Source of the DNA: a virus
Lineage: Duplodnaviria > Caudoviricetes
Virus record (IMG/VR): IMGVR_UViG_3300013947_000027
Coordinates: 1 to 64,000 of that record
Direction: 5' to 3' (one strand)
Length of the DNA: 64,000 nucleotides
A program made the translations under genes and the position numbers. Positions 303 to 48,257 of this stretch are shown in pieces. The number at the start of each line of letters is the position of its first letter. The stretch's first letter is position 1. Below the pieces are notes generated by a model. It ran no database searches. It was not told where the DNA came from and saw only the letters and a program-made list of their open reading frames with translations.

Positions 303-3300
303 TTAGTCAACTCCTTTCAAGTACTTTCTGACTGTTGTAGCAGAGATGCCAAGCTGTTCAGCAATCTCAGCAATAGTGTTACCATTAGCACTCAGGCTCT
401 TAATACGATTAGCTTTAGCAGTGCTGATTGTTTTAGTGTCGCGAGGCGTTGCACGCTGACGAAGTTCATCAATGTCAGCATTAGCGAGGATGCGCTTAAG
501 TTTATTCTCAGTGATGGCACCAGCTTGAATAGCTTCCCATTCTCTATCACTAATCTTGATGTTACGATCACGACGAGAGACGGCGCCAACTTCTTGACGA
601 TACTTGGACATGGCCCTCTGGCTTGCCTTTCTAACGTCGCTCTTTTCCATCTCTCTGCCTTCATCAGCGGCTTTCTGCTTCATAGCAGCGACCTCGGCAT
701 TAGCAAGACGACCAGCTTGTCTCTCACGAACACTATTCTTTTCCGCCTCGTTAAGGCGAACCATAAGGGAGTCTACTTCTTTCTGGTACACTTTAGTGGC
801 AGAGGGATCATGCTTAAGATTACCAGTGGCAAGCATCTCTTTACGAGCCTGATTAGCAAGAGCTTTCATGCTATTAGCATAGTCGGCATAGATTAGCTCC
901 ATCGGATGCTGTGCTGCGGATACAAGTTCACGGGCATCCTTAGCCTCGGCCATATTAGTAGTCCACTGGGTCCTAGTCCTAACATTATAGGAGATATCCC
1001 CCGCCTTGTTCTTATAAGATACGGTCCCATCCTCATTGAATGACCGGACCGGCTTGTACTTTTCAGAAGCCACGGGGTCAGAGGGGTCATAGGTGATCTT
1101 CTTACCCTCGGTAGTCCTAATGGTTACGATACCCGTGTTCTTATCCCTCTTACTGTCCACATAATACAGGTCATCCGCCTTGGCCAATTTATATGACTGT
1201 TCACCAGTTTCAGGATCAATAGTTGCCTGACCTCTACGCCTATCGACCTGGAGCTTACCCTTAGCTCTAGAGATGATTGTGCCTGCCCCTCCCCCCTTCA
1301 GGGTGCCATCAGGTCTAACCGTCACCTGGTACTTATCCTTAAGGGCCTGGATGTTATTCTCTACCTCACTGCGCTTATAGTCCAGCTTATGCTTCTCGGC
1401 ATCGATAACCACCATGCTATGTCTAACAGCGCGTGCGATCTCATCATCAGTAGCTCCGCCAGACAAGGTCATGTCAGTAATAAGATTAGAAATGACCCCC
1501 ATTTGCATCTGAGTATCATGCTTGGTCATGATCTTAACTTTCTCACCGCGAGAATTAACTCTTTCGCCGTCCTTGCCAGGCATGGTTCCATATTCAACTT
1601 TGGCGTCGAATCCTTTAAGCTCTTTAAGATATGGCGAGCGTTCGATCTTGATCTTGCCATAGTCAGTAGGAATGCACATGACAGTATCGCCGTCAAAGTC
1701 TGCGCCAGACAGCTGATCAGCAACACGCTTAGTGATACCAACGGCATCGTTAATATCGGTGCCAATCATTTTCTTAGCGTTAGAATTCTTATTGTTTACA
1801 GTAAGAACAGGGATTTCGAAAATGCCAGCATGAGGATATCGAATAAGAGCAAGCTTAGTACCATTAGGATAATCAGGAGCATAGATCTCTGTATCCTTCA
1901 TAAAATTCATCGGAATAATAGCATGGTACTTCTGTCCAGGAAGGGCTGCTGCTTTGAGGTTTACGGCTGCACCATCGCAGTCGTCAGCAAAAGATTTGAG
2001 GAGGTGCTTCTTAATTGTTGGGTTATTAACTTCACAAATGCGATTGTATTCTTCGTAGCGATCGGCTGCTGCAAGACCAAGCTGACGGCGTGCCAAATCC
2101 TTAGACTGTTTAGAAAGGAACTGAGAAGGAAGGGCATCCGCCCATTCAGACCAGTCGCCTTCAGAAGACTTCTTGTTAATAAGGCCAAGCTTTTCTTCGC
2201 CAGTCTTGGGATCCTTGTACCAATACTGGCCACCTTTATCAGCATCCTTAATAAGAGCGCCGAAAGGATTCTCGGGGTCATCTTTCTTGATAGGTTTAAG
2301 AACTGTATTGTCTTTGGGGCCGATAGCAGGTACACCTTTATGCTTATTGGTGTTAAACATTACATCGACACCCTTGGGAAGGTCATCAGAATATACTGCC
2401 ATACCCTTGAGATAATGGGTTCCATCAACAAGAATACGAACCTGAGCATATTTATCGCCATTCAGATCCAGATCAGTACAGCCTCTACGAATTTCGATCA
2501 GACCATCCTTCTCGTCGCCAGTGATTCCATCAGGGCCTTTCTCATCCGCATAGCGAATTTTAAGTCTCTTAGAATCAAGGCTCGCAGGATATGTAAATTT
2601 CTTCTTGAATGAGTCAGTACCTTCCTGATACTTATAATCTTCGATAGTATGAATCTCGTCGAAGCTATAAATGTCTTTATGCTTGGCTCCAGGAGGGCAC
2701 AGAATCATCTGTGTGGTGTAATTACCACGGTTGGTAGGTTGTTCTACTCGGCCCTGGAAAACGCCGTAGCCCTCAGATTCGAGCGCGTAGAGGGCCTGGT
2801 CAAGCTTAGTTCTACTAATACCAAGTTTCGATTCAGCTCCGTCGCCGACATTAATATACCGCTCGACATCCTTGCCAACATCAATCATGCCTTTCTTAGC
2901 GACCTGCTCTTTCAGGAAATCAGCAGTCTGCTTTGCAGCAAGCATCTTAGCTTCAGATCTAGGATCAAGGAGAGAACGAACTGTAGACTCTCGAAGACCC
3001 ATTTCTCGACCAATAGCGCTGTAGCCAAGACCTTTGTCTTTAAGATTCTTAGCCTTAACAACCTGCTGCTCTCTACGAGTGTACTCAGCCCAGTATTTCT
3101 CATTACGATACTCTTCGAGTTTCATACCGAAATGCTTCTGAACCTCTTCAGCAGTTTCTTTAAATCCCTCTTCTTTCTTCAGTCGGTCAATGCGAGTGAG
3201 AAAGTCGCCGTCATGCTGATAAGGATCTTCGCCTGACCCATACGGCCACCGGCCAGAATGATACTTAGTGCCATAGTGCATGAGATAATCAGTGTCGCCA

Positions 3301-3338
3301 TCAAGCACGGCACGCATTTCATCTACAATAGAACTCAC
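303..3338 (-). CDS. Single-polypeptide two-barrel (DPBB) RNA polymerase, YonO/cellular-RdRP-like, with N- and C-terminal HTH domains
   Basis: Catalytic GADFDGD preceded by LIRYP; QVR..LKG, GVISN and HS..VIDAEK resemble cellular RdRP-family motifs; HTH-like segments GLGYSAIGREMGLRESTVRSLL and GNTIAEIAEQLGISATTVRKYL. Confidence 0.85.
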   Translation of the reverse strand: MSSIVDEMRAVLDGDTDYLMHYGTKYHSGRWPYGSGEDPYQHDGDFLTRIDRLKKEEGFKETAEEVQKHFGMKLEEYRNEKYWAEYTRREQQVVKAKNLKDKGLGYSAIGREMGLRESTVRSLLDPRSEAKMLAAKQTADFLKEQVAKKGMIDVGKDVERYINVGDGAESKLGISRTKLDQALYALESEGYGVFQGRVEQPTNRGNYTTQMILCPPGAKHKDIYSFDEIHTIEDYKYQEGTDSFKKKFTYPASLDSKRLKIRYADEKGPDGITGDEKDGLIEIRRGCTDLDLNGDKYAQVRILVDGTHYLKGMAVYSDDLPKGVDVMFNTNKHKGVPAIGPKDNTVLKPIKKDDPENPFGALIKDADKGGQYWYKDPKTGEEKLGLINKKSSEGDWSEWADALPSQFLSKQSKDLARRQLGLAAADRYEEYNRICEVNNPTIKKHLLKSFADDCDGAAVNLKAAALPGQKYHAIIPMNFMKDTEIYAPDYPNGTKLALIRYPHAGIFEIPVLTVNNKNSNAKKMIGTDINDAVGITKRVADQLSGADFDGDTVMCIPTDYGKIKIERSPYLKELKGFDAKVEYGTMPGKDGERVNSRGEKVKIMTKHDTQMQMGVISNLITDMTLSGGATDDEIARAVRHSMVVIDAEKHKLDYKRSEVENNIQALKDKYQVTVRPDGTLKGGGAGTIISRAKGKLQVDRRRGQATIDPETGEQSYKLAKADDLYYVDSKRDKNTGIVTIRTTEGKKITYDPSDPVASEKYKPVRSFNEDGTVSYKNKAGDISYNVRTRTQWTTNMAEAKDARELVSAAQHPMELIYADYANSMKALANQARKEMLATGNLKHDPSATKVYQKEVDSLMVRLNEAEKNSVRERQAGRLANAEVAAMKQKAADEGREMEKSDVRKASQRAMSKYRQEVGAVSRRDRNIKISDREWEAIQAGAITENKLKRILANADIDELRQRATPRDTKTISTAKANRIKSLSANGNTIAEIAEQLGISATTVRKYLKGVD

Positions 3339-7661: not shown

Positions 7662-7754
7662 ATAAAAGAAGAAATGTTAGTCTTCTAGATATACATCTAG
7701 ATCTCCTTGCTAGTTTCCTAGGAACGGAATCGAACCGTTTCTTCATTTCTTCTC
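7662..7754 (-). ncRNA. Structured small RNA A (four-way junction with a tRNA T-arm)
   Basis: 10-bp closing stem AGAAGAAATG/CATTTCTTCT; AACGG-TTCGATT-CCGTT; CTAG-GAAA-CTAG; TCTAGAT-GTAT-ATCTAGA; U-tract; starts at motif 7775. Confidence 0.7.
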
Positions 7755-7838
7755 ATAATAGGCAATGTAATTTTCGCGAACCTAAAATATCAAAAAGAAA
7801 GAGGCTCTGAAAACAGAACCTCTAACTTCGTCGAGTTG

Positions 7839-31206: not shown

Positions 31207-31232
31207 AGTCTTTTCTCCTTTCGTTGTCAGAC

Positions 31233-31272
31233 AAAAATAAAAAGGAAGAGAGACACATAGTATCTCCCCTCC
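31233..31272 (-). terminator. Hairpin plus U-tract directly after motif 31293 (empty cassette or attenuator)
   Basis: GGAGGGGAGATAC-TAT-GTGTCTCTCTTCC-TTTTT. Confidence 0.7.
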
Positions 31273-31445
31273 ATAATATAGCGTGTAAATTTCGCGAATT
31301 ATGCTTCAGATTCTTTTCCCTTTACCGCCAAAGTAATTCTTGCAATGCCACCTGCAATAACTCCGATAACAATTGCCGTTCTGATCGGATGCTCGAGCAG
31401 AGTGTTAATTACTTCTTTCATTTTAGGTCCTCCTTGAAATATAAA

Positions 31446-47015: not shown

Positions 47016-47774
47016 CTAGTATTCGAGGTAGCCTATGACTGGTTCCATTGGAAAATGAATAATCGTGCATTCTAATCCTTGACTTTCTTCAGATTCCTCG
47101 TCAATGACTATCTCCTCGTAGTCAAATTCGATCCATGGATGCCAGTACATTTCCTCGATCTGACCGCAAGCCCATCCTACATTTTCATACTCTGGCTTCT
47201 GCTCCAAACCAAGAAGTTCGTAATATTCGTTGAGACAAACAGCGCCATTAACGTACATAGCTCTATTAGCCTCATACTGAGCCCACATGACAGTCTCTTT
47301 GGTTGATTCGAAGTATCTTCCTGAATAGAAATCGTAGAATAGTTCTTTGTTATTGTCAGATAAATCTACGTCACCCGCATACTTGTCTTTAGCGATCTCG
47401 CCACGAATGTTCTTGCCAGCTTCTTCTCCATACAATTCGTCCGTTTTCTTCTTATACTCCTTATAAGAATTGTCAAGTAACGCATACGCACTCATAAGAG
47501 ACGCCTGCTGACGTTTACTAATAACGTTAGATCCGAATATGCACACAATTGTAGCAGCTCCAGTAATTATAGATGGGATGTAAACTGGGCCGGCTATTTT
47601 GATTTTTTCCCATTTGGTTAATTCTTCTCCTTTCTTCTCTTTTGCATCTTCAAGTAACGATAATGCTTTCGGTGTTTCTTTGGCTACCATAACTGCTGTA
47701 GTTACTACTCCAGTTGCACCTATACAAGTTAATATTGTAGATGCGTTACGTTTAATGAATTGTTGTAAATCCAT
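47016..47774 (-). CDS. DUF6353-like membrane-anchored protein, paralogue 3
   Basis: NASTILT..G..TPKA..YIP..LNEYY..GW; start revised to MDLQQF. Confidence 0.7.
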   Translation of the reverse strand: MDLQQFIKRNASTILTCIGATGVVTTAVMVAKETPKALSLLEDAKEKKGEELTKWEKIKIAGPVYIPSIITGAATIVCIFGSNVISKRQQASLMSAYALLDNSYKEYKKKTDELYGEEAGKNIRGEIAKDKYAGDVDLSDNNKELFYDFYSGRYFESTKETVMWAQYEANRAMYVNGAVCLNEYYELLGLEQKPEYENVGWACGQIEEMYWHPWIEFDYEEIVIDEESEESQGLECTIIHFPMEPVIGYLEY

Positions 47775-47812
47775 TTCTTTCCACTCCTCGGGTTTAGGGT
47801 ATGTGTCAAAAA

Positions 47813-48006
47813 TAAAAGAGAGAATCAATCATTCCACTCGAAGGACGCCGATATTTCCCTCAGGCTCATGGTCAATCTTTCGATTGAGCTCATCTTTTCA
47901 GATCTAGCCTCGTTCATAATCTTTCGATTATTATCTCCTTCCCGATGCGGTACCAATGATTGTTGGCCCTCCAACTTCACTGCCCTTTCGAGTGTTATAT
48001 TCTCTC
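47813..48006 (-). ncRNA. About 190-nt highly structured RNA E (three GAAA tetraloops, possible pseudoknot)
   Basis: GAGAGAAT/ATTCTCTC; CACTCGA/TCGAGTG; AGGGC/GTCCT; ATAATC-GAAA-GATTAT; ATCT-GAAA-AGAT; TCAATC-GAAA-GATTGA; AGGCT/AGCCT; motif 48027. Confidence 0.8.
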
Positions 48007-48068
48007 ATATTAGGGCCTGTAAATTTCGCGAACCGTTGATTAGGCGAAAATAAAAAAGAAGGAGCTCA

Positions 48069-48257
48069 TTACTGAGCTTCCTCCTTCTCGTCAGAACTTG
48101 CAATGAGGTTCTCCATCTTCTTACTGTTGTACTTGAACCATGCAACTTCTGCGCCGACGATGGCCGCATTCAACAGGATCGCACCTTTCCAATGCTTCTT
48201 GTAGAATCGGCCAGTCTCCTTACAGAGTTCACCATAGTCCTTCCAAAACTGTTTCAT
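48069..48257 (-). CDS. Small membrane protein (cassette payload)
   Basis: Motif 48305, AAGGAGG RBS. Confidence 0.7.
   Translation of the reverse strand: MKQFWKDYGELCKETGRFYKKHWKGAILLNAAIVGAEVAWFKYNSKKMENLIASSDEKEEAQ

Follow-up and report, generated by a model that had tools for sequence, protein, structure and literature searches.

Evidence for a structured RNA family with a near-invariant junction core in gut and rumen phages

Introduction

Structured RNAs with large invariant cores have, in past cases, turned out to be ribozymes, riboswitch aptamers, or the cores of ribonucleoproteins (RNPs). Orphan RNAs, such as the "ornate" phage-associated GOLLD and ROOL and also raiA, are multi-domain molecules with highly conserved cores, and a branched RNA core with paired ends is also found in the phi29 pRNA. 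A 2023 catalogue derived from IMG/VR holds ~10,000 unnamed candidate viral RNA structures (PMC10690425), and a paper on YonO mentions for SPbeta a non-coding RNA, not annotated, immediately behind the site where YonO transcription begins (PMC5467207). The present work concerns RNA E, an RNA of about 190 nucleotides (nt) encoded in a 64,000-nt stretch of phage DNA, called the window throughout, which is part of a 102-kb IMG/VR virus record (IMGVR_UViG_3300013947_000027).

RNA E is a genuine gene for a non-coding RNA and lies on the minus strand. Its membership in a previously uncatalogued structured RNA family of gut and rumen phages is well supported, with the proviso that the 2023 catalogue (PMC10690425) could list the family already. 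An earlier note on this stretch, made by reading the letters of the sequence, had put the RNA forward as a candidate for a new class, and this proposal has gained strength from a conserved family, strong covariation, and the lack of a match to known families. The carriers are uncultivated gut and rumen phages of Clostridia that encode a YonO-like single-chain RNA polymerase.

Members of the RNA E family

Relatives were located in IMG/VR and in metagenome contigs with three words of 17-19 nt taken from RNA E, and then with the degenerate word GAGCCNGAGGGAANTATCGG. About 25 loci with relatives, cited below by number where they must be told apart, were confirmed with nhmmer. The collection comprises 21 distinct full-length relatives of 171 to ~267 nt and two cut copies, and human-gut assemblies (L073, L085) are among the sources. 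The covariance model R1, which was built with explicit structure, yields 27 credible matches at 44.8 to 209 bits. The window transcript (~190-199 nt; 47808-48006, minus strand) scores 194.6 bits (E 2.9e-43, model positions 1-196), partly by construction, as the seed of R1 included the window sequence itself; the core is also shared by relatives that word scans had turned up independently. This is the sole match to R1 in the window, and RNA E is present in a single copy within the 102-kb genome. The full-length family carries the core words GGGCAGUGAAG, UCGRGAAGGAGAUAA, ACGAGGCUAGA, GARC, and CCAYGAGCCKGAGGGAARUAUCGGCGUC, all of which are present in the window copy.

A two-hairpin word scan of IMG/VR and a gapped core pattern gave only chance matches beyond the known members, and a word scan with the 20-mer GGUACCGCAUCGGGAAGGAG gave no match. 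No homologue was found in GenBank phages, and a pattern search of 401 sampled Clostridia genomes returned only coding-sequence coincidences such as L119. A 30-nt match in Listeria P70-like phages was discarded because it fails the covariance model, and L070 (25.9 bits) was set aside as a false positive brought up by the word used for searching. Two bacterial contigs (L082, L119) carry CCATGAGCCGGAGGGRATTATCGGCTTC within a coding sequence, presumably gyrB; this chance match to an invariant RNA word is a trap for word searches aimed at the family. No conserved neighbouring protein was found at a fixed distance from family members.

Secondary structure and covariation

Position i of the RNA corresponds to window position 48007-i on the minus strand. 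The stretch is read on this strand because the genes around RNA E run on it. The same strand is indicated by the alignment, since the invariant G:U pair 24:162 and the G:U pair 103:139 would be C:A on the other strand. Folding of the single sequence is suggestive and falls short of proof, with a minimum free energy (MFE) fold of -59.9 kcal/mol (z = -3.1) on the minus strand and z = -2.5 on the plus strand.

The evidence that decides the matter is comparative and comes from two alignments. Alignment A2 holds 18 sequences aligned with MAFFT, from which RNAalifold recovered helix P2 and hairpins B, C, and D, whereas A3 holds 28 matches realigned to the model (24 distinct rows). In A3, standard pairs fill 92.8% of pair cells versus 72.9% in shuffles, and a control in which partners were slid by 1-3 columns leaves 33-42% of pair cells paired. 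Both-sided changes are seen in 32 of the 41 pairs versus 18.2 in shuffles, with none of 500 shuffles reaching 32, and the covariation score is 0.396 against 0.112 in shuffles. Taken over repeated counts on the 24 distinct rows, standard pairs make up 92.8-94.5% of cells and 30-32 pairs are doubly changed, the latter again matched by none of 500 shuffles. Because A3 was fitted to the model it favours the structure, but the same covariation is already present in the MAFFT-only alignment. Six helices have compensatory changes. Covariation had been named in the earlier note as a check on the fold, pseudoknot included; the nested pairs covary by the figures just given, and the complementarity of the pseudoknot is kept in eight variants, as described in the next section.

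The consensus fold is branched and is not a rod. Its multi-way junction is closed off by helix P1/P2 and bears the hairpin-A domain, hairpin B, and a P3 sub-domain with hairpins C and D. P1 joins GAGAGAAU (RNA 1-8; 47999-48006) by eight Watson-Crick pairs to 47825-47818, the strand AUUCUCUC (RNA 182-189; 47818-47825) that abuts the U tract. In P2, the strand CACUCGAA-A-GGGC (RNA 13-25; 47982-47994), which has a conserved A bulge, pairs with GUCCUUCGAGUG, or GUCC-UUCGAGUG (RNA 161-172; 47835-47846), and 92.7% of cells are paired. This helix, CACUCGA/UCGAGUG extended by GGGC/GUCC, has both-sided changes in 11 of its 12 pairs. The hairpin-A domain (47944-47975) consists of a base helix (32-35 with 60-63), a CCAA/UUGG stem, and a CAAUCA loop; the stem covaries at 4/4 pairs, and the base helix rests on pair 34:61, which is seen as UA, CG, GC, AU, and UG. 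Hairpin B (AUAAUC-GAAA-GAUUAU; RNA 76-91; 47916-47931) is variable in loop and length and is doubly changed at 6/6 pairs, with 95.1% of cells paired.

The P3 helix would be formed by GGCU (98-101) and AGCC (141-144). Its 5' strand lies in an invariant segment (47904-47915) made up of a GAACGA junction, GGCU, an A, and G103. Hairpin C (AUCU-GAAA-AGAU; RNA 104-115; 47892-47903) covaries at three of its four pairs. The adjoining segment (47872-47891) holds a GAGC junction, which is GAAC in most members, and hairpin D (UCAAUC-GAAA-GAUUGA; RNA 120-135; 47887-47872), which covaries at 6/6 pairs and whose closing U:A becomes G:C in L083 and L080. The sub-domain had originally been closed with AGGCT/AGCCT (47910-47906 with 47866-47862). 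Only GGCU/AGCC is invariant and is retained from that proposal; the outer A:U pair is lost in some members, with U145 changed to G. Certain other pairings were considered and rejected. The MFE helix GGCU/AGCU (98-101 with 117-120) conflicts with an A at position 118 in most members, and junction pairings of 62-65 with 156-159 and of 72-75 with 154-157 have uncompensated variants (L065, L064, L083, L060).

The stems, the AGGCT/AGCCT sub-domain, and the three GAAA hairpins (47931-47916, 47903-47892, 47887-47872) reported in the earlier note are all present at those coordinates. An argument from the three tetraloops to tertiary docking did not survive comparison, in which the loops become UUCG, GGAA, AUAU, UUU, CAUG, larger loops, or inserts of 30-66 nt. 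For example, hairpin C has UUCG, GGAA, AUUA, or UAUA in relatives, and hairpins B and D tolerate the 30-66-nt inserts (L071, L089). The GAAA loops of RNA E are replaceable stable caps and do not amount to conserved contacts.

Paired substitutions also bear on the question of whether the stretch might be a small protein gene (a 51-amino-acid GUG frame at 47980-47825, or a 30-amino-acid frame from AUG 47917) or a spacer that folds by chance. Such open frames exist, and an AAGGAG word lies upstream of a conserved RUG. However, the helices change by paired substitutions, hairpin C varies in length and thereby puts the sequence after it, whose nucleotides do not change, into different frames, and, measured against the invariant core, the longest open frame turns up in each of the three phases, so that there is no conserved reading frame. 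Moreover, G70 and G72 of AAGGAG change to A in three lineages. The chance that either explanation is correct is negligible. The same substitutions, in the L060, L071, and L097 lineages, led to the rejection of AAGGAG as a Shine-Dalgarno mimic or anti-Shine-Dalgarno sponge.

A pseudoknot between loop and tail

The 8-base-pair (bp) complement that the earlier note had read as a pseudoknot crossing the CACTCGA/TCGAGTG stem is a recurrent feature of the family. It joins the hairpin-A loop to the 3' tail after P2, and so crosses P2. Its 5' strand, CAAUCAUU (RNA 45-52; 47955-47962), which consists of the loop and two stem nucleotides, is complementary to 47833-47826; its 3' strand, AAUGAUUG (RNA 174-181; 47826-47833), is flanked by the 3' strands of P2 and P1. 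In the window, none of 500 shuffled tails reaches the 8-bp length.

Complementarity is kept in eight loop/tail sequence variants, each member matching its own tail. Written as loop with tail, the variants are CAAUCAUU with AAUGAUUG in the window, ACAUCA with UGAUGU in L077, CAUCA with UGAUG in L052, GUAUCA with UGAUAC in L086, AACUAUCAAU with AUUGAUAGUU in L073, UUAUACAUU with AAUGUAUAA in L076, AUAACACG with CGUGUUAU in L083, and UAAAGUCU with AGACUUUA in L097. Five of the duplexes are long (8-10 bp), and no more than 2 of 500 shuffled tails attain their observed length; four variants of 8-10 bp are mutually unrelated in sequence. Two loci, L076:1218-1414 and L096:1-181 (both minus strand), have the core, P2, and a 9-bp pseudoknot and are without the purine/pyrimidine P1 clamp and the U tract.

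The minimal variants of the L060 type, as well as L071 and L089, do without pseudoknot pairing and have hairpin A capped by GAAG or GAGA. The L060-type variants are also without the outer part of P2 and without the tail. Geometry suits an intramolecular fold-back because the hairpin-A arm is about as long as P2, and the pseudoknot may also represent an intermolecular contact.

The invariant junction core

Conservation was counted over the 21 distinct full-length rows. The junction strands AGUGAA, GRGAAGGAGAUA, GMACGA, GARC, CCAYG, and KGAGGGAARUAUCGGC amount, with the P3 3' strand AGCC added, to 53 positions; 35 of these are invariant, and conservation is >=90% at 46. No position among the 78 in outer P2, the hairpin-A domain, and hairpins B, C, and D is invariant. 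The strand AGUGAA (RNA 26-31; 47976-47981) is at least 90% conserved at 6/6 positions, and GGGAAGGAGAUA (RNA 64-75; 47932-47943) at 9/12, with G70 and G72 varying only to A. The 3' core CCAUG-AGCC-UGAGGGAAAUAUCGGC (47847-47871), which includes the P3 3' strand and a 16-nt junction strand, is invariant at 21 of 25 positions. The ~50 near-invariant junction nucleotides are purine-rich, whereas the helices and loop caps vary freely. It is these nucleotides, and not the GAAA loops, that point to a specific tertiary core in RNA E.

Readings of the junction as a K-turn or as an 11-nt tetraloop receptor were rejected by eye, the needed GA or CCUAAG words being missing. The word GAGGGAAAUAUCGGC may bear a weak resemblance to CR-I of RNase P, a point in favour of the known-family reading taken up below.

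Searches for known RNA families

No Rfam family was matched at threshold in the window. When the E value was relaxed up to 10 for 900-nt and 206-nt stretches in non-permuted order, there was no credible Rfam match, and none above E = 1 on the RNA strand. Under these relaxed settings, no match was obtained to models for self-cleaving ribozymes (hammerhead, twister, twister-sister, pistol, hatchet, HDV-like, and glmS) or for the T-box leader (RF00230), and the Rfam model for phi29 pRNA (RF00044) was not matched either. ARAGORN found nothing on RNA E, neither it nor Rfam gave a match to 6S (RF00013), RNase P, SRP, tmRNA, or tRNA models, and an Rfam search of the loci of 12 relatives had no match besides tRNAs. 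The earlier note's judgement that RNA E is not 6S, SRP, RNase P, tmRNA, or a common ribozyme agrees with the Rfam result. Searches of the literature by sequence word and by topic had no relevant match, a prior listing in the 2023 catalogue (PMC10690425) being possible.

RNA E might alternatively be a divergent form of an RNA already catalogued (T-box, 6S, RNase P, phi29 pRNA, tmRNA, or a tRNA-like RNA). The window copy does contain UGGUACCGC, which resembles a T-box sequence, but all other members have GGAAACUAA or other sequences in its place. For this reason, and because the T-box model has no match, a T-box relationship was rejected. The failure of Rfam on the RNA strand and at the relatives' loci, along with that of ARAGORN, makes any such membership very improbable.

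The transcription unit

RNA E is preceded by the phage-specific promoter TTCGCGAAATTTACAGGCCCTAATAT (48007-48032, minus strand). The 14-nt promoter core occurs in the window in 13 copies with two or fewer mismatches, all on the minus strand, where 0.93 would be expected by chance. In aligned copies the motif stops a few bases 5' of a ribosome-binding site or a structured RNA. Since promoter copies end just before such elements, transcription of RNA E would start at ~48006, at about the G of ...TATG, which coincides with the 5' end given in the earlier note. An intrinsic terminator (hairpin and U; 48045-48089, minus strand) belongs to an upstream gene of 62 amino acids and separates that gene from RNA E. 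At the other end, the U tract UUUUAUUUUU (47808-47817, minus strand), as read from the sequence, makes a terminator-like end together with P1, and most members are alike in this respect. The gene that follows (47016-47789, minus strand) encodes a DUF6353 membrane protein and has a ribosome-binding site (GAGGAG, then ATG). No promoter was found in the window between the U tract and this ribosome-binding site, and because the gene is without its own promoter, its expression would depend on read-through from the RNA E unit.

Every full-length member of the family is preceded by the same promoter type. In 13 of the 17 distinct contexts, the next promoter directly follows the U tract, and for this reason RNA E is likely to be a standalone and probably trans-acting stable RNA, encoded by a self-contained cassette of promoter, RNA, and U tract. 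In L060 (1495-1569, minus strand) and L064 (6861-6942, minus strand), the next promoter-driven cassette after the RNA E homologue is a tRNA gene, and the DUF6353 gene comes thereafter.

The unit fits the transcription machinery of its phage. A DFDGD-motif protein of 1011 amino acids with a C-terminal helix-turn-helix (HTH) domain like sigma-70 region 4 is encoded at window 303-3338 (minus strand). Among putative RNA polymerases, that of Faecalibacterium phage FP_oengus is 44% identical to it, and the range is 44-57% once that of a human-faecal phage is included. Full-length relatives in Gordonia, Arthrobacter, and Streptomyces phages are annotated there merely as HTH proteins. This predicted polymerase is consistent with a promoter specific to the phage and with a host among the Clostridia. 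The phage itself is common, since its exact DUF6353 protein is recorded in 35 blocks of an assembly collection.

Exchange of RNAs at the DUF6353 slot

The slot ahead of the DUF6353 gene was surveyed at 15 related-phage loci (L002-L007, L043-L045, L046-L051). The layout of promoter, RNA, and U tract 5' of the DUF6353 homologue is found in 14/14 surveyed loci that reach upstream. Among the 15, RNA E occupies the slot only in L046, which is an identical copy of this phage; the remaining loci have at least four unrelated RNAs, mostly tRNA-like, and an unrelated RNA is present even in a phage whose DUF6353 protein is 98% identical. Model R1 has no match in L002-L007 or L043-L045, and BLAST of RNA E against the whole records of five close relatives gave no match. 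Since the cargo of the slot is swapped between relatives, RNA E is movable and the DUF6353 gene does not need it.

Slot RNAs in L002-L007 and L043-L051 lie ~200 nt upstream of the DUF6353 homologue. The cargo is a ~100-nt RNA with a T-arm in L002-5 and L047, another T-arm RNA in L048-51, a GAAA-hairpin RNA in L006/7, and tRNA-like RNAs in L043-45, with the T-arm ahead of the D-arm in L043. Within the window, a cassette at 7662-7778 (minus strand) begins GAGAAGAAAUGAAGAAACGGUUCGAUUCCGU and encodes the same RNA type as fills the DUF6353 slot in L048-L051, which indicates that cargos move between slots and genomes. At ~31225-31296 (minus strand), a promoter is immediately followed by a bare hairpin, GGAGGGGAGA...UCUCUCUUCC, and UUUUUAUUUUU; this unit resembles an "empty" cassette, with clamp and terminator and without cargo. 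The filling of one genomic slot by unrelated RNAs (tRNA-like, the RNA E family, and others) suggests that phages with an RNA polymerase of their own follow a modular "RNA payload" strategy.

Such exchange is important when considering whether RNA E is a cis-acting leader, either a riboswitch or an attenuator, whose closing helix and U tract form a conditional terminator so that the fold or a ligand sets read-through into DUF6353. The missing promoter ahead of the DUF6353 ribosome-binding site in the window speaks for such a leader, and L080 and L077 are likewise without a following promoter. An invariant junction among variable, covarying helices is also the conservation pattern of riboswitch aptamers. 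However, the U tract leads directly into the next promoter in most contexts, relatives, one with 98% identity in the protein among them, have unrelated and partly tRNA-like RNAs in this slot, and the closing helix of 12-20 bp is too stable for a switching P1. Regulation in cis is accordingly considered improbable as the main role of the RNA.

Possible functions

Family members recur in a wide range of genomic settings as units with their own promoter and end, and if RNA E is such a standalone RNA, several properties would follow. Both of its ends would be locked in helices, with P1, the pseudoknot, and P2 on one continuous 3' strand, and because the ends are buried in this way the product should be long-lived. 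It should act in trans because there is usually no downstream gene to control. The invariant junction would then be the working part, either as a binding pocket for a partner that is conserved across hosts or as a site of catalysis. A partner as invariant as the junction itself should be involved, because the junction is near-invariant across phages of different samples while the rest of the RNA drifts. A conserved host or phage protein or RNP could well fill this role, at somewhat less than even probability. A small molecule, with the RNA serving as aptamer or sponge, is a less probable partner, and ribozyme chemistry at the junction is rather unlikely; what remains is left to something else. 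The rigidity of the core makes a rapidly evolving defence protein less likely as the partner.

A more specific proposal is that RNA E represents a new class of phage-made RNA whose junction either acts in trans as a sponge, not as a cis riboswitch, for a small molecule of signalling or metabolism, or catalyses a reaction, which would make it a new ribozyme class. The RNA would then be a tool for host manipulation and one item of a swappable RNA library, driven throughout by the promoter of the phage's own polymerase. This proposal is speculative and rather improbable.

A self-cleaving ribozyme, or one that processes other cassette RNAs such as tRNA-like phage transcripts, would also account for certain observations. 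A large invariant core, variable peripheral helices, and a pseudoknot are typical of small ribozymes, and tRNA or tRNA-like cassettes adjoin RNA E in L060 and L064 and occupy the syntenic slot. On the other side, no Rfam ribozyme model is matched even at the relaxed E value, the hammerhead-like word is CUGAGGG and not CUGANGA, and there is no obvious need for processing because each cassette has its own promoter and terminator. An RNA with such activities is therefore unlikely to be what the family encodes.

The reading of RNA E as a standalone, stable RNA from a structured family must also be weighed against several opposing points. Its start site, 3' end, and stability are predictions from the sequence. 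For the outermost 8-bp stem, P1-like pairing of the 5' and 3' ends is found in most members and is not above chance alone (103/300 shuffles), because a purine-rich 5' end pairs easily with a U-rich tail. Covariation cannot choose between P3 and a rival hairpin, GCC.GA/UC.GGC (142-147 with 156-160), because both are built from invariant bases; only pair 103:139, which varies as G:U, A:U, and A:C, favours P3. In the window, L077, and L080, the gene that follows is without its own promoter, so some effect in cis is possible. Finally, the family is small, and there are many close relatives among the 21 distinct full-length sequences.

If the family holds up, it adds a class of complex-folded RNA with an unusually large invariant core. 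The setting is also tractable, in that the gene is short, its promoter and terminator are defined, a minimal natural variant of 171 nt exists, and natural forms with and without the pseudoknot are available for probing and structure work.

Comparison with known systems

In architecture, RNA E is similar to riboswitch aptamers and to the core of glmS-type ribozymes, having a closing helix, a multi-way junction, and near-invariant junction nucleotides. As in those RNAs, the helices covary and tolerate inserts, and the pseudoknot is accessory. Unlike riboswitches, members of the family mostly lie outside 5' untranslated regions (13/17 contexts), have no expression platform and a closing helix that is long and stable, and match no Rfam aptamer model.

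RNA E resembles phi29 pRNA in its phage origin and its size, in having paired 5' and 3' ends and a core that branches, and in a loop complementarity that covaries and is possibly intermolecular. Yet RNA E pairs a loop with its 3' tail and not a loop with a loop, and its phage, at ~100 kb and temperate, is unlike the phi29-like podoviruses. Furthermore, RNA E cannot be an essential part of packaging because it is absent from close relatives.

The SPbeta YonO unit offers the same kind of phage polymerase and a non-coding RNA after the YonO start (PMC5467207). That RNA may correspond, in Bacillus, to the RNAs seen here close behind the promoter. The two systems differ in that the gut-phage promoter recurs in many copies and serves numerous short cassettes, and not one late operon.

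Like the orphan RNAs of the GOLLD, ROOL, and raiA type, RNA E and its relatives are multi-domain RNAs with a highly conserved core. Also in common are carriage by Firmicutes phages or prophages, occurrence in gut and rumen samples, and frequent proximity to tRNA genes (here in L060 and L064). They differ in matching none of the Rfam models for these RNAs by sequence or structure and in being three to four times smaller, at 171 to ~267 nt against ~580-800 nt for GOLLD and ROOL. A further distinction is that the RNA E family is expressed as a cassette from its own phage-polymerase promoter.
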